Below, piece after piece: positions 2,930-43,260 of a DNA stretch of 64,000 bases (position 1 is its first letter; each line of letters starts with the position of its first letter). The notes under the pieces are model-generated. The model had not been told where the DNA came from, did not search any database, and saw only the letters and a program-made list of their open reading frames with translations. Position numbers and translations under genes: made by a program. This stretch comes from Candidatus Heimdallarchaeota archaeon. GTDB taxonomy: Archaea > Asgardarchaeota > Heimdallarchaeia > Heimdallarchaeales > Heimdallarchaeaceae. The stretch covers positions 1 through 64,000 of the forward strand of contig JAUVXV010000016.1 of assembly GCA_030603365.1 (NCBI GenBank), read 5' to 3'.

Positions 2930-3434
2930 GATATAGTCACGTTCTATTACACTTAAGCTAATTAATATTTTACGAAAGTCCTAATCGCATCAAGACGATT
3001 TTCTTGCCACCAAAGACTAATTCTAAGAGTAGTTATATGGATGAATATCTTTAGTCATTGAATAATACGAAACTTACTTGTTGGTGTGTTTTTACCATAT
3101 TATCATTCATTTCTGAAAGGGATATTGAATAGATTTGGAAAACATGTTGAAAAAGCAATTTGTTCTTATTTGGTGACTCTGGAGGTGATGTAAAAATCAT
3201 CACACTCTTCTGGATCTAACCATGTATCATCACTCTCGGTTGTAATTAATATTAAAGACCAAACTAATTAAACTACACAAGAAAAAAATGACATTTACAA
3301 ATAAAGTTCCAGTCGCAATTGGCCCGGGGTCTATTCACTTAACATCTGGTTTACAGACCCGGGGTCTGTATTATATTTGTATTATAATTGTAAGCTCAAA
3401 CGGCTTAAACCCCGAACTGAACCCGCTACACATA

Positions 3435-3470
3435 ATCTTACCACGTTAATTTTATTTCATGTGGTAAGAT
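3435..3470. repeat. Inverted repeat ATCTTACCAC-N16-GTGGTAAGAT (copy 1)
   Basis: Identical 10-bp arms and the same 16-nt spacer length recur at 43225-43260. Confidence 0.85.
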
Positions 3471-3530: not shown

Positions 3531-3875
3531 ATGATTATTATGAGCGAGATATTTCCTGAAGCAATAAGAAATTTACCAGAAGCAGATATTCCAATACCAG
3601 GACTAATAGCTTATCTTTCCCAAGATCAGAACCACCAGATTGTCTTTATGAATTTCAGTCAAGATGCCGAAGTTCCTCCTCATTCACATGATGCGCAATG
3701 GGCTATAGTGTTAGAAGGGAAAATTGCTTTGACTCTGGAGGGGAAGGACCAGATCTATACTAAGGGTGATCGCTTCTATATTTTACCTGGAGAAACCCAT
3801 TCAGCTAAGATATATGCTGGATATGCTAGTATGGAGTTTTTTGCAGATAAGGATAGATACAAGGTTAAAGAATGA
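3531..3875 (+). CDS. Cupin-domain protein
   Basis: PPHSH..QWAIVLEG and GDRFYILPGETH cupin motifs. Confidence 0.9.
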   Translation: MIIMSEIFPEAIRNLPEADIPIPGLIAYLSQDQNHQIVFMNFSQDAEVPPHSHDAQWAIVLEGKIALTLEGKDQIYTKGDRFYILPGETHSAKIYAGYASMEFFADKDRYKVKE

Positions 3876-3968
3876 GGATAGATTAAGGTAAATAATATTG
3901 GTAATTCTATTCATTTCTTTTGTTCCACTAGAAATAGACCCGGGGTCAACAAAAACCCATTCTTCAGT

Positions 3969-5543
3969 TTAAGTCACTATTTTCAATGTGTCTTTACCCT
4001 GTAAATTGAGATAATCTAGTAGTTTGTTCTCTAATCTACTAAAACCATGTTGTTGACATTTCTTAATTGCCATGTACTGGAGAGCTGGTCCTAAAGAATC
4101 ACCATTCTTGTAAGCACCTACCTGGATGAAAGCTTCCATGAAGACGCGTAACTCAAGAACTTCGATACGGTGAAGCTGGTTTTCATATTTCTTTAAGAGT
4201 GGGTATATCTCTGCAAAACGATGTATTCGGTAGTATTCCTGTGCTGCTAATAGATCCGCGAATGCTTTCTCTACAAAGGTCATTCGTTCTTCAACCGGTC
4301 TCTTCTTTAAGATAGAGATATAACCAATGATTTGCTTTTCTTCTGTATGAGTTGCTTTTTCTATGAGAAAATTGATGATGTGTTCAAATCTCTTTGTACT
4401 CGGGTTGTTTAGGTTTCTTATTTTTAGTAAATGCTCCTTAGTAAGGTTAGCGTTCAGAAGAAACTCACTAAAGAATATCGCATTGCTGTAATATTTGTCT
4501 ATACCACTTCGAATAATTTGCACTAATTCCTGCAAACCTTCAATTTGAAAACCTTGTAATCTTGATTTAATGTAAAATTTCGTTAGATTGAATGTGTGCT
4601 CAATTTGTCTTTTGCTAAAAGAATCTAGATTCTTAATTGCAATATTTTCTTCTATCAGACCATCTACTTCTTTCATTTGTTTGAGAGCTAGTTCTAGTTT
4701 TCCTTGAAGTGCATAAGTAGAAGCTAAGTGTGAGAGCGTTGTTATGTAATATCCTAAGTATATACTCTTTCTGTGAATAAGTCTCAGAAAGTTTTGAGAG
4801 CGTTGAAAATGATTTTCTGATTTACTAAGATTAAAACTCAATTCATGACTAAAGCCAATGAAGAAATGAATGATTGCTTGTACTTCTTCTGGTACATTGT
4901 CAAGAAAATTGTAATCACTTAGTATCCTTTTTGATATGCTTAATGTCTTCCCCCAATTCTGATCTTGCTGGTAAATTAGAATTAGAACCCCCAAAGCAAA
5001 CGTTAAGCTTCTGTAAAAACCTTTTTGCATGAAATATTCTGCACATTTTTCTAAAATTTCAGCTGCTGTTACATCGCGTTTTATTAACCATTTTTCAATA
5101 GCAAACGAATAGTTACAAACATAATAGTCATATTCTTCAATATTATCATTTAGAGATATAAATTTCATTGATTCATCAAGAGCTTCTTTGCTTCTTTGTT
5201 TATTTCCTTTATATTTCTCAATATACCATTCAACATTGTAAGCAAGCGCTAATCCACCATCATAATCAATCTTTCTAGATATTTCTTTCATTTTACTTAT
5301 TAAATCGACAATGATTGTGAAGTTTTCTTCTGAGTGTTGAATTTGTGTTATTTTGATTTCATAAAGCTTAACTAAGGATTTCTGATCATTAATTAGTTCA
5401 CATTTCTTAATTGCTTTATTAACTGTATACAAAATTCCCTCATTATTTCTGTTATTTGATGCTGCAACTCTAAATTGTTCAATGAATGTATTCATGTCTT
5501 CAAAGGAATTTATACTCTCTAGTTCTCTAACCTTATCTTCCAT
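3969..5543 (-). CDS. Cassette 1 alpha-helical/TPR-like protein (524 aa)
   Basis: Helical-repeat pattern (e.g. LASTYALQGKLELALKQMKE); paralog of 5988-7575 and 8060-9634 with a near-identical C-terminus (IYPLL.KYENQLHRIEVLELR.FMEAFIQVGA..NGD.LGPALQYMAIKKC). Confidence 0.85.
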   Translation of the reverse strand: MEDKVRELESINSFEDMNTFIEQFRVAASNNRNNEGILYTVNKAIKKCELINDQKSLVKLYEIKITQIQHSEENFTIIVDLISKMKEISRKIDYDGGLALAYNVEWYIEKYKGNKQRSKEALDESMKFISLNDNIEEYDYYVCNYSFAIEKWLIKRDVTAAEILEKCAEYFMQKGFYRSLTFALGVLILIYQQDQNWGKTLSISKRILSDYNFLDNVPEEVQAIIHFFIGFSHELSFNLSKSENHFQRSQNFLRLIHRKSIYLGYYITTLSHLASTYALQGKLELALKQMKEVDGLIEENIAIKNLDSFSKRQIEHTFNLTKFYIKSRLQGFQIEGLQELVQIIRSGIDKYYSNAIFFSEFLLNANLTKEHLLKIRNLNNPSTKRFEHIINFLIEKATHTEEKQIIGYISILKKRPVEERMTFVEKAFADLLAAQEYYRIHRFAEIYPLLKKYENQLHRIEVLELRVFMEAFIQVGAYKNGDSLGPALQYMAIKKCQQHGFSRLENKLLDYLNLQGKDTLKIVT

Positions 5544-5660: not shown

Positions 5661-5729
5661 TTACGGTCTCCATGCTGGTGGAAGTATTCCTTCATCTCCC
5701 TCATCGGGATCATATTTTAGTTCATGCAT
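5661..5729 (-). CDS. Cassette 1 micro-peptide MHELKYDPDEGDEGILPPAWRP (22 aa)
   Basis: Manual translation; GAGTGA SD 6 nt before ATG; TTTTAATA box at 5776-5783; conserved across paralogs. Confidence 0.85.
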   Translation of the reverse strand: MHELKYDPDEGDEGILPPAWRP

Positions 5730-5736
5730 TGTAAAT

Positions 5737-5982
5737 CACTCTTAGGAAAGGGTTATCCTAATAGTAGCATGAAGCTATTAAAACACCTCAAGGAAGAATG
5801 TGTCATAAAAGAAAATTGGTCCGATGAATTTAATTCTGTAAAAGAGTATTTCAGATGATTTTTTGTGTGAAATTAAAAACCTCCAAAGAATACAGAAACC
5901 CCGAAACATCTTATCTACTGAAAAAGAAAGAGAATAAGGGTTGTGGGATCTATATAAGATCCCAAACGTAGAAGGTGATCCA
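5737..5982 (-). repeat. Copy of 16S 3' end + pre-rRNA trailer + peptide promoter (unit 1)
   Basis: Highly similar to 9834-10079; begins TGGATCACCTTCTACGTTTGGGATC on the minus strand. Confidence 0.9.
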
Positions 5983-5987
5983 TTTCA

Positions 5988-7575
5988 TTAAACACTAATT
6001 CTAAGTGCCTCACTTCCCTGTAAGAATAGATAATCTAGTAATTTGTTTTCTAATCTACTAAATCCGTATTCTTGACACTTTTTAATAGCCATGTACTGGA
6101 GAGCAGGTCCTAAAGGATCACCATTTTTATAGGCGCCAACTTGGATAAAAGCTTCCATGAAGATACGTAATTCGAGAACTTCGATACGGTGAAGCTGGTT
6201 TTCATATTTTCTTAAGAGGGGGTATATCCCTCCATAATTTTCATGTAAGAATAATTGTTGTGCAATCAATAAATCAGCGAAGGCATTCTCAATAAAGGTG
6301 GTTTTACAGGTTTTCTTTCTATTTTTCAAAATTCTTATTGTTTCCAGAAATTGTTGCTCAGTAGTGGCTTTCTCCCTTCTGTTAAGGAGTGTAAATGAAA
6401 TCAAGTGTTTAACACGGGCAATGCTAAAATTATCAATAATCAGAAGTTCTTCTAATTCTGCTGATTCTAGATTTGCGTTGAGAATAAACTCACTTAGGAG
6501 CATGAAATCACTATAAAGAGACTTACTTCTTATGAATATCTTAGAAATTAAATCTTGCATTTCCTCTGAATCAAATTCTTGCATACGAGAATAGACGTAA
6601 AACTTGTTTAAATTTAGAGTATGATGAATCTGTCTTTTTGTATTTGTATCTAGATTCTTCAAAAAAAATTCCTGTTGAAGTAATTTCTCAACATCTTCTA
6701 TTATTCTAATAGTTTGTTTAAGATTACCTTGCAATGCTTTAACTGTAACAATGTAAGAGTGGACAATAATAAAATTACTGAAATAGATACTGTCCTTATA
6801 GATGGGTTTGAGAATATTGTATGCTTCTTCGAAGAAGGATTCAGCAAAACTTAGATTCATGTTAAGCATAAATCCTAAACCTGTGAAGTATTGTAAAATT
6901 GCTTTGATGTCATTGGGTAATTCATCTAATATGCCCTTGCTACTAAATATTTTCCTACTAAGTTCCAGTATACTCTCGTGGGACTGCATTCTTGCATAAA
7001 TCACGCTCAATATACTTATAGACTGAGCCAAACTGCGATAAAAACCATTACTGTAAAAATACTCTATGTTATTCTTCAAAATGGATATAGATGAAAAGTC
7101 ATGATGCTCTAACCAAAGTTCAAGAGCATAAGAATAGTAACACATATTCGAGATGTATTGATCATATTCAATATTATTCTCTAGAATTGAAATTGCTTCT
7201 TGAATTGCCTTCGAGCTCTTTTCTTTATTTCCTGAAATTCTTTCAAGTAACCACTCATACATGTATGAAAAAGCCAATCCATTCATATTGTTTGATGTTT
7301 TTGAAAAGTATTTCATATCTTGTAGAAGTTTAAAACAGAGTTTTCGGTTTTCTTCAAGATGGTAGATTTGAGCGATTTTAAGTCCAATAAGTAATATTTG
7401 TGATTTCTTATCGTTTAGAATCAAACTTTTCTGAAGTCCAATATTGATAATCTCTTGAATAGTTTCATTTTTTTCATTTGATGATATTACTTTCAGATTC
7501 TTCTAAGAATTTTCTAAACTCTTCTTTAGTTTCAATGCTAATTATTATGTTTTTGACTTCTTCGTAATAGCTCAT
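5988..7575 (-). pseudogene. Cassette 2 TPR-like protein with a +1 frameshift near 7500 (about 528 aa if corrected)
   Basis: ATG at 7575 reads MSYYEEVKNIIISIETKEEFRKFLE; the next frame continues NLKVISSNEKNETIQEII..., matching paralog N-termini. The span is 1588 nt (3n+1). Could be a sequencing error. Confidence 0.75.
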
Positions 7576-7669
7576 CTTACAAATTAATCCGTACTTTCAT
7601 TTATATACTCGTGAAATACTTAAAATAAGAAATCTCGTTCAAAAAATAAAAAAGTATTGGGAGAAAGAA

Positions 7670-7741
7670 TTAAGCAGGACACCATAAAGGTGGTGTTATA
7701 CTCTCGTCTCCGTCTTCTGGGTCGTATTTTTCTTCGTACAT
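7670..7741 (-). CDS. Cassette 2 micro-peptide MYEEKYDPEDGDESITPPLWCPA (23 aa; two further in-frame ATGs up to 7747)
   Basis: Manual translation; GAGTGA SD; TTTTAATA box at 7788-7795; T-rich tract downstream. Confidence 0.85.
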   Translation of the reverse strand: MYEEKYDPEDGDESITPPLWCPA

Positions 7742-7748
7742 CATCATT

Positions 7749-8050
7749 CACTCTTAGGAAAGGGTTACCCTAATAGTAGAACAAAGCTATTAAAACACCT
7801 CAAGGAAGAAAGTGACAAGTAAGAAAACTGGCTAGAGGAATTTAAATCTGTAAAAGAATATTTCAACTGATTTTTTGTGTGAAATGAAAAACCTCCAAAG
7901 AATACAGGAACCCCGAGACTACTTCGTCCATAGAAGAATGAAGAGAATAAGGGGGCTTCTTTCGAAGTCAGATTGGTCATAACAAGGCCTAAAACAGGCC
8001 CTGCATGATCAGAGAATCCCCTGAGGGGATTCCAACGTAGGAGGTAATCC
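7749..8050 (-). repeat. Variant copy of 16S 3' end + trailer + peptide promoter (unit 2), with ~55 extra nt
   Basis: Begins GGATTACCTCCTACGTTGGAATCCCCTCAGGGG; extra hairpin-rich segment at about 7962-8015; remainder close to 9834-9990. Confidence 0.9.
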
Positions 8051-8059
8051 TTTCCTTGT

Positions 8060-9634
8060 TCAACCACTTACTTTGAGTATACTACTTTCCTGTAGGAATA
8101 GATAATATAGTAATTTATTTTCTAATCTACTAAATCCATATTCTCTACATTTCTTTATAGCCATGTACTGGAGCGCGGGTCCTAAAGGATCACCGTTGTT
8201 AAAAGCACCTACTTGGATGAAAGCTTCCATGAAGATACGCAATTCAAGAACTTCAATACGATGAAGTTGATTTTCATATTTTCTTAAGAGTGGGTAAATC
8301 TCTGCAAAACGGTTCAATTTATAATATTCTTGAGCTGCTAATAAATCTGCAAAGGCTTTCTCTACAAAAGTCATTCGTTCTTCAACAGTCCTATTTTTTA
8401 AAGCTTGAATTAGTTCCACAACTTGTATTTCCTCTGAATGTGTTATTTTTTCAATAAGAAAAGTAATGATGTGTTGAACTCTTTTAGTACTTGGATTGTT
8501 CAAATTTTTTATTCTTTCTAATTGATCTTCTGAGAAATTAGTGTTTAAAATGAATTCACTAAAGAAGATGGGATCGCTGTGTTGTTTCTTGATATTTTCT
8601 AGAATTACTTGAATCAACTCACTTAAATCTTCAGTTTGAAAGTTTTGCAATCTAGAATGGATGTAAAATTTGATTAAATTAAAATCATGTTCTATCTGTT
8701 TCTTGCTAAAAGAGTCTAAATTCCTTGTAGTAACACTTTCTTCAATTAGCTCTTCTACCTCTTTCATCTGGTTTAAAGCTAATTCTAATTCTCCTTGAAG
8801 AGCATAACAAGCTGTCAAATGGGCTTGACATCTTAGAAAGTATCCCAAGTAAACACTTTTTTTGTACTTACCTCTCAGATTATTCTGTGATTTGAGGAAG
8901 TAGTGTTTTGCTTCATTGATGTTAAGATTTAATCTATGATTCACTCCAATAAAATAATCTATTATTGCTTGGATTTCCAATGGCATTTTATGTAAAACAT
9001 TCTTATTTTGGATGATCCGTCTTACCAATTGTATTGATTTTTCTTTATTTTGTGTTTGTTGATAAATTAAAACTAAAAGTGATAAACTTTGAACAAAGCT
9101 TCTGTAAAAATTGTTCTTATAGAAGTAATTAGCACATTCTTCCAAAATAGAGGGGGCTATTGGTTCACGTTTTGATAACCAAATTTCTACTGCAAACGAA
9201 TATTTACATACATTATATTCATAGTTTTCTGAGTTTAAGTATTGAGTTACATAATTTATGGAATTATTGATAGCTTCTATGCTTTTCTTATCATTCCCTT
9301 TATGTTTTTCAATGTACCATTCTTTGTAATATGCTAGCGCTAATCCTCCCATATAGTTAATTTCCTTTGAAATATCTTTCATTTGTTGAATTATTTGAAC
9401 GATATTTTGATGTTCTTCCTTTTGGTGCTCAATTTGCGACATCTTCATTTCATATAACTTAACCAATGATTTTCGATCATTAAGCTGGTTACATTTTCTT
9501 ATTGTTTTATTTATTGTTTCTAAAATACCTTCTTCATTTCGGTGATTAGAAGAAATAACTCTAAATCTATCTATGAACAATGACATAGATTCTTCTGAAT
9601 CAATAGTTTCAAATTCATTAACCTTATCTTCCAT
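8060..9634 (-). CDS. Cassette 3 alpha-helical/TPR-like protein (524 aa from MEDKV)
   Basis: Closest paralog of 3969-5543; GGTGAT SD precedes the ATG at 9634 (the ORF track starts at 9652). Confidence 0.85.
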   Translation of the reverse strand: MEDKVNEFETIDSEESMSLFIDRFRVISSNHRNEEGILETINKTIRKCNQLNDRKSLVKLYEMKMSQIEHQKEEHQNIVQIIQQMKDISKEINYMGGLALAYYKEWYIEKHKGNDKKSIEAINNSINYVTQYLNSENYEYNVCKYSFAVEIWLSKREPIAPSILEECANYFYKNNFYRSFVQSLSLLVLIYQQTQNKEKSIQLVRRIIQNKNVLHKMPLEIQAIIDYFIGVNHRLNLNINEAKHYFLKSQNNLRGKYKKSVYLGYFLRCQAHLTACYALQGELELALNQMKEVEELIEESVTTRNLDSFSKKQIEHDFNLIKFYIHSRLQNFQTEDLSELIQVILENIKKQHSDPIFFSEFILNTNFSEDQLERIKNLNNPSTKRVQHIITFLIEKITHSEEIQVVELIQALKNRTVEERMTFVEKAFADLLAAQEYYKLNRFAEIYPLLRKYENQLHRIEVLELRIFMEAFIQVGAFNNGDPLGPALQYMAIKKCREYGFSRLENKLLYYLFLQESSILKVSG

Positions 9635-9757
9635 AAATAGGATCACCAGCAAAATGGATATGATATATATTTTATATTAAAACTATGTTCAATATTGCAG
9701 TTAGGTTGCATTTTTACTACATTTTATAAATTAAAAAAAGGAGAAACTATGATATTT

Positions 9758-9826
9758 TTACGGTGTCCATAATGGCGGCAAAATATCTCCGTCTCCTTCG
9801 TCAGGGTCGAATCTTTCTTTGTACAT
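9758..9826 (-). CDS. Cassette 3 micro-peptide MYKERFDPDEGDGDILPPLWTP (22 aa)
   Basis: Manual translation; GAGTGA SD; CTTTAATA box at 9873-9880. Confidence 0.85.
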   Translation of the reverse strand: MYKERFDPDEGDGDILPPLWTP

Positions 9827-9975
9827 CATTATTCACTCTTTGGAAAGGGTTATCATAATAGTAAAAAGAAGCTATTAAAGCACCTCAAGAAAGAAAGTGC
9901 CAAAGAAGAAAATTGTCTAGAGGAATTTAAATCTGTAAAAGAATATTTCAACTGATTTTTGTGTGAAATGAAAAA

Positions 9976-10031
9976 CCTCCAAAGAATACAGGAACCCCGA
10001 GACATCTTATCTACAGAAGAAAAAAGAGAAT
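9976..10031 (-). other. 3' arm of the 16S pre-rRNA processing stem
   Basis: Imperfectly complementary to 11691-11747 upstream of the 16S gene. Confidence 0.8.
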
Positions 10032-10066
10032 AAGGGTTGTGGGATCCCTGAGGGGATCCCAAACGT

Positions 10067-11577
<1,511 letters not shown>

Positions 11578-11690: not shown

Positions 11691-11747
11691 ATTCTCATAT
11701 TCTTCTGTAGCATCAGAACGTCTCGGAGTTCTTGTTTTCCTTGGAGG
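11691..11747 (-). other. 5' arm of the 16S pre-rRNA processing stem
   Basis: Imperfect inverted repeat of 9976-10031. Confidence 0.8.
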
Positions 11748-12057
11748 TGATTGTAAAATTCATACAGCACTTTGTTATGTTTTGCAAGGCTTTTTTAAGT
11801 TATCGTTCAAAGGCTTATTGTAGACAGCCAACCATAACGAAGTAGTAAGCTTGCAAATATGATTATTGCGTTTTCTCTTTTATTAATTGCGATTTAAGAG
11901 TTTTTTGCCTAAACAAAAAAAACTGCAATAAAACTGAAACAATCTGTGAAATCAAAGGAGCGGATTCTGTTAGACGAACCCGCTCAAAGACATGGCTTAA
12001 CATCCACTCATCAGACCGAAGTCTGACTTTTCGTGGCAATATACTAAGTTAGAGTTT

Positions 12058-12373: not shown

Positions 12374-12487
12374 TAACCTTTCCACGAGAGTTGAAATGAT
12401 ATGTATGACCCAGAACCAGGCGATGAAGATACTTTACCCCCACATTGGTTTCCTTAAAATTCAGAAACCAATTCATTTATTTTTTTG
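12374..12487 (+). repeat. 114-bp perfect inverted repeat, left arm
   Basis: Exact reverse complement of 14304-14417 by manual comparison. Confidence 0.95.
12401..12457 (+). CDS. Micro-peptide MYDPEPGDEDTLPPHWFP (18 aa), copy in the left IR
   Basis: Manual translation; same family motif as the cassette 1-3 peptides. Confidence 0.7.
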   Translation: MYDPEPGDEDTLPPHWFP

Positions 12488-14303: not shown

Positions 14304-14417
14304 CAAAAAAATAAATGAATTGGTTTCTGAATTTTAAGGAAACCAATGTGGGGGTAAAGTATCTTCATCGCCTGGTTCTGGGTCATACATATCATTTCAA
14401 CTCTCGTGGAAAGGTTA
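14304..14417 (-). repeat. 114-bp perfect inverted repeat, right arm
   Basis: Exact reverse complement of 12374-12487. Confidence 0.95.
14334..14390 (-). CDS. Cassette 4 micro-peptide MYDPEPGDEDTLPPHWFP (18 aa)
   Basis: Upstream of and co-oriented with the 560-aa gene, as in cassettes 1-3. Confidence 0.85.
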   Translation of the reverse strand: MYDPEPGDEDTLPPHWFP

Positions 14418-14586: not shown

Positions 14587-17433
14587 ATGGTAAAAAAGAA
14601 GAATCCTTCAAATAAATATAAATACAATTCAAAAAAGAGTAAGGAAAGTAAGAAAATTCGTATTTTCAAAAGGATTCTGCCATGGTTAATAGTTATTCTT
14701 GTGGGGTTAATTTCCTTCATTTTTCTGTTTCCTGAATTAATTAAACTCCTTCCATTTGAACCCTTAGTAGTAATAGCTGAATTCAGTGAGAACGTTTCCC
14801 TAGCTCTGAAAGGTTTCTTTGTAACAGTCTTTACAAACGTAGCTGCTTTATCATCTATTGTAGGTCTAGTTATTCTGTTAATTATAATCAAATTCTTGCC
14901 TTTCTATCCTGTAGATGATGTAAATTCTCAAACTCAGAAGAAACTGTTTTTGCCTTTTTACAGAAAAGTGGGTATTGTAATTGTATCCTCTTCAGTAACA
15001 AATTCCTCTAACAACTTCGATTCTGTGAATTCATATGCTAACAGGGTACACCAAGCTTTCATCAGCTGTCTATCAATGAGGAAGAGAGATAGGATGTTAG
15101 CTGTCTATAAGCATAATACAGGGGTTAGTTTATTCTTTCCAGTAGCAGTAAAAGGATGGCTCAAGAAAAAGGTAGAAGAAAAATTAGAAAGAGACATTGT
15201 ATTTGTTTCCAGTTCCATTGAAACACATTATGATTGTAGAATCAAGACTCTAACTGGAGAACAAGCACGAAGTATGGTCAAAACACTGAACCAAATGAAA
15301 GCAAAGAGCAAAATTGATTTTTCAAGAGAGCTGGTTACTAGTTTTAACCTAACGGATCAGATGTATAACATTCTCTTGAGAAATGAAATAAAAGATGCTT
15401 GTTTTATTATTAGGACAGAAAAAAAGAGAAAAGAATCAAAACAGGTTATTTTTGATTTACTACTTTTAGCTGAAGACAAGAAAACCGAATCTTTTATTCT
15501 AAACGCCAGTGGCTTAGCTAAGAAAAAAAGAAAAATTATCCCTTCTAATAAATCTTTCAATAAGTTAATGTTCTCTCCTGTTAGGAATAAACAGTCAGTA
15601 GAAATAGAAAACATTGCTACTCTAGTTCATGTTCCTCACACATATAGAGGAGGATTCTTACCAGTGAGAACAAAAGAAATAAGCTCAGAGTTAGCTAATT
15701 TTGTTCAAGATAAAGAAACCATTATTGTTGGTAGAGTTGTTGATGAGAATGATATGGGACGAGAGATTACTCTAAATGTTAAAGACTTACTACTCAATGC
15801 AGAGATTTTTGGTCAAATTGGGCGTGGAAAGACAAAGATTGTTTCCTCTATTGTTGGACAACTATTAGATAAAAAAATCAGTACTTTGGTATTCGATATC
15901 AAAGGAGAGTATGCTAGAACCTTTTTTGATAATCCAAAAGTAGAGGTTTTTACAATAGGGAGACCTCATCCTTTGTGTATTAATATATTTGAAACTGTGG
16001 ATGAAGATGATATTCATAACACACTCCTGATAATCGAGGAGATGTTATTGTCTTCAAATCAGGAATTTACACCTGCAATGAAGAATCTATTTGAGAGTGC
16101 TCTAATTTTAACACACAAATCACCTAAAAGAAACCTCCAAGTTTTTGTTGAAAATATCTTCAAAGTGTCAAAACAGCTACAAGTTCATTCAAACATTACC
16201 TACCTACAACAAACAATTGATGCGGTCTTAAACCGATTGAACTTCATTTTTAATCCTATTAACTTTGAGATTTTAGGGTCTACAAGGACAACCTTAGATT
16301 TCTCGCTTCTAGAGGGAGGCAAAAGCATAATTTTGGATATGAGTCAATTTCAGAGAAGGGCAGCAAGACCTTCTGATATCTTCTTAGTCTGTAATCTTAT
16401 TCTGAAAATGCTTTACAGATATGCTTCCTCAAAGGAAATGACAAATAAATTGAGATATGTTGTTGTTCTTGAAGAAGCAATAAATATAATTCCCAATTTC
16501 TATCACTCTGAAAGCTCTGCTTCGTTGATTACTGCAGAAAATAACTTTTTACTAGGAAGAAGTCTTGGAATTGGTCATATAACAATTTCACAGATGTGGC
16601 AAAGTGTTAGTAATATTGTCCACGGTAATTCTGCAACTAAATTCATCTTCCGTTCAAGTGAAAAAACCGATTTAATAGCTAAGTCTTTGAATCTGGATGA
16701 AAATGAAACAGCAAAAATTCAGAGTCTTCCTACTCAACATTGCTTTCTGTTTTCAGAGAATTCAGAATCAGCAATTCGAATAAGAACTCTTGACTTAATT
16801 AATGATCCAATTAGTTATGCAGAATACCAGGCAAAAATGCTCAAGAAATATGGTAGAAGTGTCTTTCCATTATTGTATAACAATTTCATAGATATGAGAA
16901 CTTCAATCTATCAACAGAGTAATCAAAATAGAACTGCAAAGACATCCAAGAGTGTAGTAACTAAAACCCCTGTCTATCCTCAAGAAAATCTTGATCAATT
17001 TCTTGAAAAAGAAGAGTCAGAAGTCAAAGCGATTCAAAAATCTAAAATCATTATTGAGCAAGATACATTAGATCTTATAACTTCGGCAGGAATGCTTCCT
17101 GAAAATCTAATCTGTGAACGTTTATGCCCAGAAAAAAGTAGTAATAAAGCCTGTTTGAAATACAATATGGCTGCTAAGATTATTAAATCAACAATAATAA
17201 ATGAGTGTTCTACCAAGGAGATATCAATCTTATTGAATGATGAAACAGAATTACAATCTTTAGTTTCTGCAGTAGCTATTAAGAGAAATCTAGAATATGA
17301 TGATTTTCTTGTTTTTTGTACTGTTAAGGTTCTGGTTCTTGATTATGCTTCAGATAGCATTCTCACACCCAACGAAGCCTATACCATTCTTACCAGATTT
17401 TCACCTAGATTACGAAATACTATTAATTCTTGA
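14587..17433 (+). CDS. Membrane-anchored HerA/FtsK-like (DUF87-type) ATPase
   Basis: Two N-terminal TM segments; Walker A GQIGRGKT; VFDIKGEY; Walker B VVVLEEA; GRSLGIG motif. Confidence 0.8.
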   Translation: MVKKKNPSNKYKYNSKKSKESKKIRIFKRILPWLIVILVGLISFIFLFPELIKLLPFEPLVVIAEFSENVSLALKGFFVTVFTNVAALSSIVGLVILLIIIKFLPFYPVDDVNSQTQKKLFLPFYRKVGIVIVSSSVTNSSNNFDSVNSYANRVHQAFISCLSMRKRDRMLAVYKHNTGVSLFFPVAVKGWLKKKVEEKLERDIVFVSSSIETHYDCRIKTLTGEQARSMVKTLNQMKAKSKIDFSRELVTSFNLTDQMYNILLRNEIKDACFIIRTEKKRKESKQVIFDLLLLAEDKKTESFILNASGLAKKKRKIIPSNKSFNKLMFSPVRNKQSVEIENIATLVHVPHTYRGGFLPVRTKEISSELANFVQDKETIIVGRVVDENDMGREITLNVKDLLLNAEIFGQIGRGKTKIVSSIVGQLLDKKISTLVFDIKGEYARTFFDNPKVEVFTIGRPHPLCINIFETVDEDDIHNTLLIIEEMLLSSNQEFTPAMKNLFESALILTHKSPKRNLQVFVENIFKVSKQLQVHSNITYLQQTIDAVLNRLNFIFNPINFEILGSTRTTLDFSLLEGGKSIILDMSQFQRRAARPSDIFLVCNLILKMLYRYASSKEMTNKLRYVVVLEEAINIIPNFYHSESSASLITAENNFLLGRSLGIGHITISQMWQSVSNIVHGNSATKFIFRSSEKTDLIAKSLNLDENETAKIQSLPTQHCFLFSENSESAIRIRTLDLINDPISYAEYQAKMLKKYGRSVFPLLYNNFIDMRTSIYQQSNQNRTAKTSKSVVTKTPVYPQENLDQFLEKEESEVKAIQKSKIIIEQDTLDLITSAGMLPENLICERLCPEKSSNKACLKYNMAAKIIKSTIINECSTKEISILLNDETELQSLVSAVAIKRNLEYDDFLVFCTVKVLVLDYASDSILTPNEAYTILTRFSPRLRNTINS

Positions 17434-42620: not shown

Positions 42621-42888
42621 ATCCTCTCTAACTTACTCAAGGGAATTTACTATTTATACTTAATAGAGAGGCTTGTCTGAAAGTGATTTTCATCCAAAAA
42701 AGAGTCTTTCCACTATGACGGTTTTTGCTGGGTCTAAAATGCAGTTTAGATAACAACACCTAAACTAAAAGTATCTGTAAGTGTTGAATGTGAAAGACAG
42801 ATCATCTTCTAACCTGTCAGTTTTTCTTTAGAGTGTTTTAATAGTTTTATTCAATTAATATGGTAGACCTATCCGAGAGTGAGTTATG

Positions 42889-42960
42889 ATGTACAAACCA
42901 AAATATGATCCTGACGAGGGAGATGGAGATATTCTCCACCCAGCTTGATTCCCAAACTAA
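42889..42960 (+). pseudogene. Cassette 5 micro-peptide MYKPKYDPDEGDGDILHPA*FPN (conserved Trp codon mutated to TGA)
   Basis: Same TTTTAATA box (42836-42843) and GAGTGA SD; premature TGA at 42946-42948. Confidence 0.85.
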
Positions 42961-43012
42961 AAAAATCTCCAAATTTTCATTTTTTTTGACAAAAAATTTC
43001 ACGAGTATATAA

Positions 43013-43171
43013 ATGAAAGTAGGTGCTTTCAAGAATGGTGATCCTCTTGGACCTGCTCTCCAGTACATGGCTATCAAAAAGTGTAAACAGTATGAATTTA
43101 GTGGATTAGAAAAGAAGTTAGCAAATTATCTAATGATGCAAGGCACTGATATAATTAAAACAATGCCTTAA
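43013..43171 (+). pseudogene. C-terminal ~50-aa remnant of the cassette TPR-like gene
   Basis: Reads (MK)VGAFKNGDPLGPALQYMAIKKCKQYEFSGLEKKLANYLMMQGTDIIKTMP*, fused directly to the promoter. Confidence 0.9.
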
Positions 43172-43224
43172 ATCACTTGTCTTTAATCTAATTGACCTTC
43201 AGGGGTTGAGATAAATGGTTTTTA

Positions 43225-43260
43225 ATCTTACCACAGAGAAATATAATTGCGTGGTAAGAT
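43225..43260. repeat. Inverted repeat ATCTTACCAC-N16-GTGGTAAGAT (copy 2)
   Basis: Same arms as 3435-3470; followed by a T-run. Confidence 0.85.

Follow-up and report, generated by a model that had tools for sequence, protein, structure and literature searches.

Arrays of unrelated genes between displaced copies of the 16S rRNA tail in a family of Asgard archaea

We describe here an array of genes behind the sole 16S ribosomal RNA (rRNA) gene of a Candidatus Heimdallarchaeota archaeon, found in a 64,000-nucleotide stretch of DNA (hereafter ‘the window’; contig JAUVXV010000016.1 of assembly GCA_030603365.1, positions 1 to 64,000), in which displaced copies of the 16S 3' tail, and of the ‘trailer’ that follows it, separate successive cargo genes. 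Since such copies separate unrelated cargo in related genomes, the accretion of units at the 16S 3' end is supported as a general feature of the group, with the cargo in the window happening to belong to one family. Our preferred explanation, which we hold to be somewhat better than an even bet, is that arrays grow by RadA-type homologous recombination of the host, with the 16S gene providing the left arm and a displaced trailer the right, supplemented by rare illegitimate joins. Below, G000 denotes the genome of the window, other G numbers the further genomes of the family, and L numbers the loci that were compared.

Reading along the minus strand of the window, the order is 16S, three successive sets of trailer, short peptide gene and TPR-like gene, and then a cupin gene, cdd and the 23S rRNA gene; re-reading the sequence bore out both this order and the coordinates given in an earlier, sequence-only annotation (the ‘original prediction’). 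The 16S gene (Rfam RF01959; a single BLAST match in the assembly) spans 11577 to ~10067, with its tail at 10078-10067 and a 31-nt mini-intron at 10080-10110, in helix 45 after about E. coli position 1527. It is followed by the native trailer R1 (9830-10066), which comprises a hairpin, the 3' arm of the pre-16S processing stem (core at 9976-9998), a T-tract, a remnant of a gene that we call c3 and the region upstream of the peptide gene; then by peptide gene 1 (9758-9829; 23 amino acids (aa), of the YDP-x-GD-x-PP-x-W family) and TPR-like gene 1 (8060-9634; 524 aa). The second unit consists of the displaced trailer R2 (7746-8050; of the long type and beginning 1 nt into the 3' exon), peptide gene 2 (7670-7747; 25 aa, with a near-identical peptide in G023) and TPR-like gene 2 (5988-7575), whose frame is broken near its start, around 7475-7500, marking either a pseudogene or an assembly error. 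The third holds the displaced trailer R3 (5736-5982; short type, 88% identical to R1), peptide gene 3 (5661-5729; 22 aa) and TPR-like gene 3 (3969-5543; 524 aa), with no trailer copy behind it. As originally reported, the tail copies at 8050 and 5982 lie 9 and 5 nt past the preceding stop codons (8060-8062 and 5988-5990); the match of unit 3 to the 16S gains one base when the latter is read in its intron-less form. On the plus strand, the cupin gene (3531-3875; assigned by Pfam and synteny) is the island's distal border, conserved within the genus, and the cytidine deaminase gene cdd (2363-2776) is a conserved core gene between island and 23S.

The three trailers share 85-89% identity with one another, whilst the cargo proteins are, as had been claimed, far more divergent (45-61% identical; 38-51% at four-fold sites). 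Over their last 90 codons, the TPR-like genes nonetheless reach 76-78% identity, such that the conserved block is composed of the TPR C-terminus, the trailer and the peptide. That the three cargo genes are homologous is clear, but their labelling as TPR genes falls below Pfam cut-offs. The presence of the 3' processing arm in the trailers was upheld by a conserved arm pattern that matches three times genome-wide, always within the array (reversed control pattern, 0). Each trailer also carries, in antisense, the last ~16 codons of c3, a large gene that adjoins the 16S in relatives; these plus-strand remnants lie at 9902-9955 in R1 (profile score 3.2 bits, against a shuffled maximum of 1.9; weak by itself, and backed by the other two), at ~7820-7870 in R2 (6.9 bits) and at ~5810-5858 in R3 (7.7 bits).

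Comparison with related genomes, proposed alongside the original prediction, revealed variable content at the same 16S-flank site. The trailer core is present in 20 of 31 family genomes, across two genera (0 with a reversed control), with copies almost exclusively behind 16S genes or on fragments of such arrays. In 17 genomes of the two genera, unrelated cargo is divided by some 50 displaced copies of the 16S tail or the trailer; the cargo includes SIR2-STAND, STAND NTPase, HEPN, AbiV, Schlafen and HEAT genes, together with S8 and S9 peptidases, a hydrolase, a beta-lactamase fold, leucine-rich repeat (LRR), beta-helix and LAGLIDADG proteins, and peptide-TPR pairs. As expected of an additive island, direct repeats of the anchor gene's 3' end bound the blocks, and content differs between related genomes; G025 has a 14.5-kb block between near-identical 16S-end direct repeats, and five TPR units in G001 share one inherited junction.

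The junctions themselves are variable. Left ends lie at -134 (G025), at about -40 with the intron included (G016), at -7 to +11, at +25 to +60, or leave the core arm only; in short-trailer numbering the range is -134 to ~+75, a spread of more than 200 nt. The original prediction had envisaged a fixed start at the 3' splice site of the mini-intron and had named scattered boundaries in relatives as the finding that would speak against it; scattered is largely what they are, and tail-proximal boundaries also occur in genomes that lack the window's intron (G029, G013, G023, G022, G003). When the 16S is read without its intron, matches of displaced copies often reach into the 5' exon, by 1-7 nt. 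On the right side, copies run beyond the T-tract into antisense c3, by ~16 codons in the window and by up to 106-118 in G008 and G013, which points to an origin from DNA. Genes are also damaged at the boundaries: in G013 the beta-helix gene is truncated to 97 aa, in G023 and G016 it has become fused to the trailer, and c3 is cut within its open reading frame beside a trailer copy in L112. To our knowledge, site-specific cassette systems do not cut or fuse genes at their junctions. Spacing between gene and repeat is tight in many units.

The units of the window do not share one history. R2 and the native trailer of species G023 are 96% identical, the trailer of G000 itself being of another type, and TPR-like gene 2 groups with an array gene of G023 (genes 1 and 3 group together); unit 2 therefore comes from a lineage other than that of units 1 and 3. 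The same R2-peptide-TPR unit has its left junction at +1 in G000 and at +97 in G023, and so different blocks have been added in front of one older unit in each lineage. The two window junctions resemble one another, as well as one junction of G023, and probably descend from a single ancestral junction shared with that species; if so, they do not record two independent events at the splice site. A TGG microhomology downstream of TPR-like gene 3 was considered as a mark of the original junction, an idea that we have dropped. The mixed ancestry of the units and the unrelated cargo of relatives both sustain the earlier view that this is not a simple recent tandem amplification, and that units accrete at the 16S 3' end.

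Related material is also found away from these arrays. Contig C14 of G000 holds a fourth module of this peptide-TPR family (L067 1750-3573), convergent on the 23S 3' end and without a 16S trailer, and a decayed module sits upstream of tRNA-Leu in the window (42807-43170), its peptide carrying an internal stop and only the C-terminus of its TPR gene being left. In genus g2, a trailer copy stands behind an inverted beta-helix gene (L058 1260-3360; L035 18947-19011), opens a second array in G025 and precedes the 23S in G029; placements that suggest rearrangement through the repeat.

Synthesising these observations, we propose a model in which the 3' end of the sole 16S gene anchors an integrase-free, additive gene island. 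Donor DNA, made up of 16S end, trailer, cargo and (optionally) an old trailer copy, would recombine with the recipient through host homologous recombination, with the conserved 16S serving as left arm. On the right, an existing displaced trailer could be used, by double crossover or gene conversion, so that the junction is inherited and copies come to resemble the host's own trailer; more rarely, an illegitimate join at a microhomology would generate a new junction, the position of which would vary. Transformable bacteria are known to carry out one-sided, homology-facilitated illegitimate recombination. Either event would push the recipient's tail and trailer behind the new block, leaving the oldest material farthest from the 16S, whilst runs of peptide-TPR units may additionally expand and swap through their conserved block, which runs from the TPR C-terminus across the trailer to the peptide. 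What the sequences show is the array, its heterologous cargo, the variable junctions, the units shared across species and the lack of integron parts; from these we infer how recombination proceeds, in which order units arrived and by what DNA vehicle.

Several points weigh against such a model. It relies on a putative route of DNA uptake, and, all relatives being incomplete metagenome-assembled genomes, an integrase could be unassembled. The gene c3 is always 16S-proximal (12 of 12) and never intact at a distal position. In addition, about 10 of the ~30 independent junctions (as grouped manually by us) fall within -7 to +4 (more than under a uniform null; binomial p from 3e-6 to 6e-3, depending on the null range). 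They mark a genuine hot spot at the helix-45 base, albeit not a fixed site, and plain recombination does not predict a pile-up there unless helix 45 is itself a hot spot for breakage or slippage.

The mini-introns bear on several of the alternatives. The 31-nt insert of the window is predicted from its sequence to fold as a canonical bulge-helix-bulge (BHB) motif, in the arrangement helix-bulge(3)-helix(4)-bulge(3)-helix, with 9-bp and 4-bp helices and two 3-nt bulges, and its removal restores the conserved exon; excising 10110-10080 yields the helix-45 sequence of intron-less relatives, and the 3' exon therefore starts at 10079, exactly where it had been placed. Across the genus, mini-introns of 30-35 nt occupy three sites, near E. 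coli 1499, 1513 and 1527 (our numbering), the first of which falls, by our own mapping, within the 1492R primer site. Their occurrence is patchy and scattered over RpoB clades (window; L032, L033, L038, L040, L041, L065), as are intron types and trailer types. They resemble the archaeal 16S hairpin introns of less than 50 nt with a BHB motif described by Jay and Inskeep (2015; PMC4496867), but their sites are absent from the loci listed there (374-1391), and the host here is an Asgard archaeon. One 16S gene, L113 2637-4179, looks mosaic, with a 5' part that differs from G003 at 4 positions and a 3' part, introns and trailer that are G009-like. As 16S chimeras are common in metagenomes, we have not used this gene as evidence, be it a real recombinant or a chimera. 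The pre-16S stem, formed by a 5' arm at 11691-11748 (minus strand; located through an inverted BLAST match and by cofolding) and by 9975-10031, cofolds into an almost unbroken duplex that lacks a clear BHB. Within the 5' arm stands ATCACCTCC, identical to the anti-Shine-Dalgarno (anti-SD) tail, and the 3' arm is therefore able to pair with that tail too.

The strongest competitor to host recombination, though we consider it unlikely, is homing, whereby a free-standing nuclease encoded on the island would cut intron-less 16S genes near helix 44/45, with repair then copying tail and cargo together. Mini-introns would protect donor alleles, and displaced tails would represent the right repair arms. 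Candidate nucleases are c3, which is membrane-anchored and has a PD-(D/E)xK-like motif, and a LAGLIDADG protein of the type found in HeimM2, an element known from Ca. Heimdallarchaeum aukensis. Homing would account for the boundary pile-up at -7 to +4, and for the native tail having an intron where a displaced tail reads intron-less, as in G000, G025 and G017; saying this, two displaced copies (G025, -134; G016, ~-40) do retain the intron, and about two thirds of junctions lie downstream of the -7 to +4 cluster. At least one mini-intron is present at 10 of 10 c3 loci with a visible 16S end, against 5 of 8 loci without c3, a suggestive association that is not significant within the two genera covered (Fisher p 0.07, with kin not independent).

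As to the candidates, c3 encodes ~1,650 aa with a signal peptide, membrane helices and a 700-aa cytosolic part (e.g. L034 12239-17182), an architecture unlike that of known homing enzymes. All intact or long copies abut the 16S trailer convergently, and only ~20 homologues exist among 1.84 billion proteins, restricted to the 16S-flank site and to this clade, with an invariant GFDD...(E/D)xK motif; this restriction and the motif both fit a homing role. Speaking for host recombination instead, as does the scatter of trailer and intron types over RpoB clades, the c3 tree conflicts with that of RpoB, in that a clade of G016 and G023, which RpoB groups, is rejected (p-AU 0.0004); since G016 carries two distinct 16S ends and is possibly a mixture, its part in this test is weakened. 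We found no match to Pfam, PADLOC, PDB sequences or Atlas features that would identify c3 as an integrase, a reverse transcriptase or a known nuclease. Two AlphaFold models (pLDDT 75 and 80) gave no Foldseek match at E<=0.001 and a VIA Z of at most 4.6, the best nuclease-like match being a weak one to HamA (Z 2.7-4.0, rmsd 5.6-6.8); this lack of matches is not evidence of a new fold. A free-standing LAGLIDADG gene, 56% identical to that of HeimM2, also fits homing in that its three close homologues lie in 16S-flank island context, but it occurs in just 3 of 31 genomes, is missing from the G000 locus, and in G027 accompanies an intron-less 16S. In fungal mitochondria, free-standing homing endonucleases accompany C-terminal duplications of genes (e.g. 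atp6 and cob; PMC6279837), and phages are described in which homing is intronless or collaborative (PMC2988022). The arrays are like these systems in having a displaced gene 3' end downstream of inserted DNA, and introns that may mark resistant alleles; they differ in their rRNA target and their large, varied cargo, and in that the nuclease here is a candidate proposed from sequence.

Less probable again is that a trailer-peptide-TPR unit with one junction was duplicated locally in tandem, its trailers undergoing gene conversion while the TPR cargo diversified. This reading draws on the homology of the window's cargo genes, with their well-conserved C-termini, on the likeness of the window junctions to each other and to that of G023, and on the five TPR units of G001 with their one inherited junction. 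Duplication cannot, however, yield the non-homologous cargo of relatives, by which it is refuted as sole mechanism, and unit 2 lies between two closer paralogues whilst carrying the trailer type of another species. It probably contributes within TPR runs but does not explain the system.

A little more doubtful still is that a tyrosine or serine integrase, acting in trans, inserts circular elements site-specifically into the anti-SD region as its attB, an idea close to the original suggestion of an attachment site for circles. The 14.5-kb block of G025 is what a Campbell integration would leave between its direct repeats, and the close gene-to-repeat spacing of many units also counts in its favour, but the boundaries are variable and genes are cut. 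Nor have integron parts come to light. As was noted for the window itself, no integrase is visible: tyrosine recombinases (PF00589) are absent from all array contigs and from nine array-bearing genomes, including G025 (95% complete), in a set whose array genomes are 72-95% complete. The only one in G000 (89% complete) is XerA-like (220.1 at a cut-off of 220; IntI model 110.8 against 265) and on a different contig, and the serine recombinases of five genomes all lie away from the array. Among the contig joins covered there is no circle junction, although contigs of this kind could not prove circles to be absent. Neither strand of the 65 trailer copies contains an attC core (RYYYAAC ... GTTRRRY). 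Clusters of attC sites lacking integron-integrases (CALINs) are by definition without IntI. With variable boundaries and cut or fused genes in place of precise cassette ends and intact genes, the arrays fall outside integrons proper, though their layout recalls one. The beta-helix gene c2, tried separately as an integrase, was ruled out, being NosD/beta-helix.

The second route that had been suggested, RNA-templated capture at the splicing-endonuclease cut by way of the intron's 3' site, is largely refuted and retains very little probability. It would explain why both window copies begin within 1 nt of the 3' exon, and why several displaced tails are in spliced form; the same boundaries, however, occur without this intron, matches enter the 5' exon, which a cut end would lack, and copies hold antisense c3 past the T-tract. 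No reverse transcriptase (RVT_1) was found in G000, G013, G023, G017 or G025, although divergent or unassembled ones could escape. Finally, an assembly artefact, a concern raised at the outset given the metagenome source and the rRNA-derived repeats, is practically excluded, because Logan contigs from two independent studies (runs X1 and X4) bridge both junctions with 2-7 differences; the units are moreover far from identical, there is one 16S, and many assemblies show the same architecture.

Further features surround the array. Just upstream of the 16S, a 560-aa TPR-like gene is enclosed by perfect 114-bp inverted repeats (12374-12487 and 14304-14417), both of which contain one and the same 18-aa peptide gene; the segment between them is possibly invertible. 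Near the island, 14587-17433 encodes an ATPase of the HerA/FtsK type that is membrane-anchored and weakly similar to CedD, a DNA importer (58 bits, against a cut-off of 600); it is possibly a DNA-uptake part. Short palindromes (GACCCCGGGGTC; ATCTTACCAC..GTGGTAAGAT) recur between genes at 3320-3470, 3937-3948 and 43224-43260, and also in L033; they may be small mobile or regulatory elements.

Among described systems, the closest in logic are the additive flexible genomic islands at tRNA 3' ends of Ca. Actinomarinales (PMC7771536) and the tycheposon islands, likewise at tRNA 3' ends, of Prochlorococcus (bioRxiv 10.1101/2020.12.28.424599). There too, an essential RNA gene present in single copy gains cassettes at its 3' end, these leave direct repeats of the gene end, the newest material is proximal, and units move between species. 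Here, by contrast, the anchor is the 16S, and the repeat holds a processing arm and terminator and has variable ends; tycheposons possess a dedicated tyrosine integrase, whereas for the 16S island we found neither this nor a fixed att core. Integrons and CALINs, including archaeal ones (Ghaly et al. 2022; PMC9668308), share the ordered, repeat-bounded accessory genes (defence-type genes included), with repeats most similar within a genome, but the 16S arrays lack attC cores and IntI, contain multi-gene and inverted modules, and have variable junctions and cut genes.

Closest in location is HeimM2 (Wu et al. 2022; PMC8813620), a single 8-kb element that extends from the 16S to tRNA-Arg(TCT) in Ca. 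Heimdallarchaeum aukensis. A complete family genome matches it, with 16S, 8 kb holding LRR and LAGLIDADG genes, and then a tRNA (anticodon ‘tcta’); from this match we infer that the window comes from a sister genus within the Asgard family of Ca. Heimdallarchaeum. HeimM2 thus belongs to the same family and the same site behind the sole 16S, and homologues of its LRR and LAGLIDADG genes occur in the arrays, but no array or direct trailer repeats were reported for it, and we see none in G027 or G030. At the left end of HeimM2, G027 does have a degenerate copy of the 16S 3' end in inverted orientation, ~190 nt past the real gene (L048 ~2715-2815). Beyond this single element, we found no description of 16S-tail arrays in the part of the literature that we covered.

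Taken at the strength given above, our findings indicate a route of gene gain, in an Asgard lineage near the eukaryotes, that takes the most conserved gene, the 16S, as its recombination anchor and needs no integrase, and they provide a mechanistic context for HeimM2. They also imply that the 16S 3' end, together with its introns and trailer, moves between species, which matters for taxonomy based on 16S, whilst the island spreads peptide-receptor modules and defence-type genes. Were a nuclease and the mini-introns to drive the island, this would constitute a new kind of collaborative homing, in which BHB introns act as marks of immunity and each event drags new cargo into the rRNA flank.

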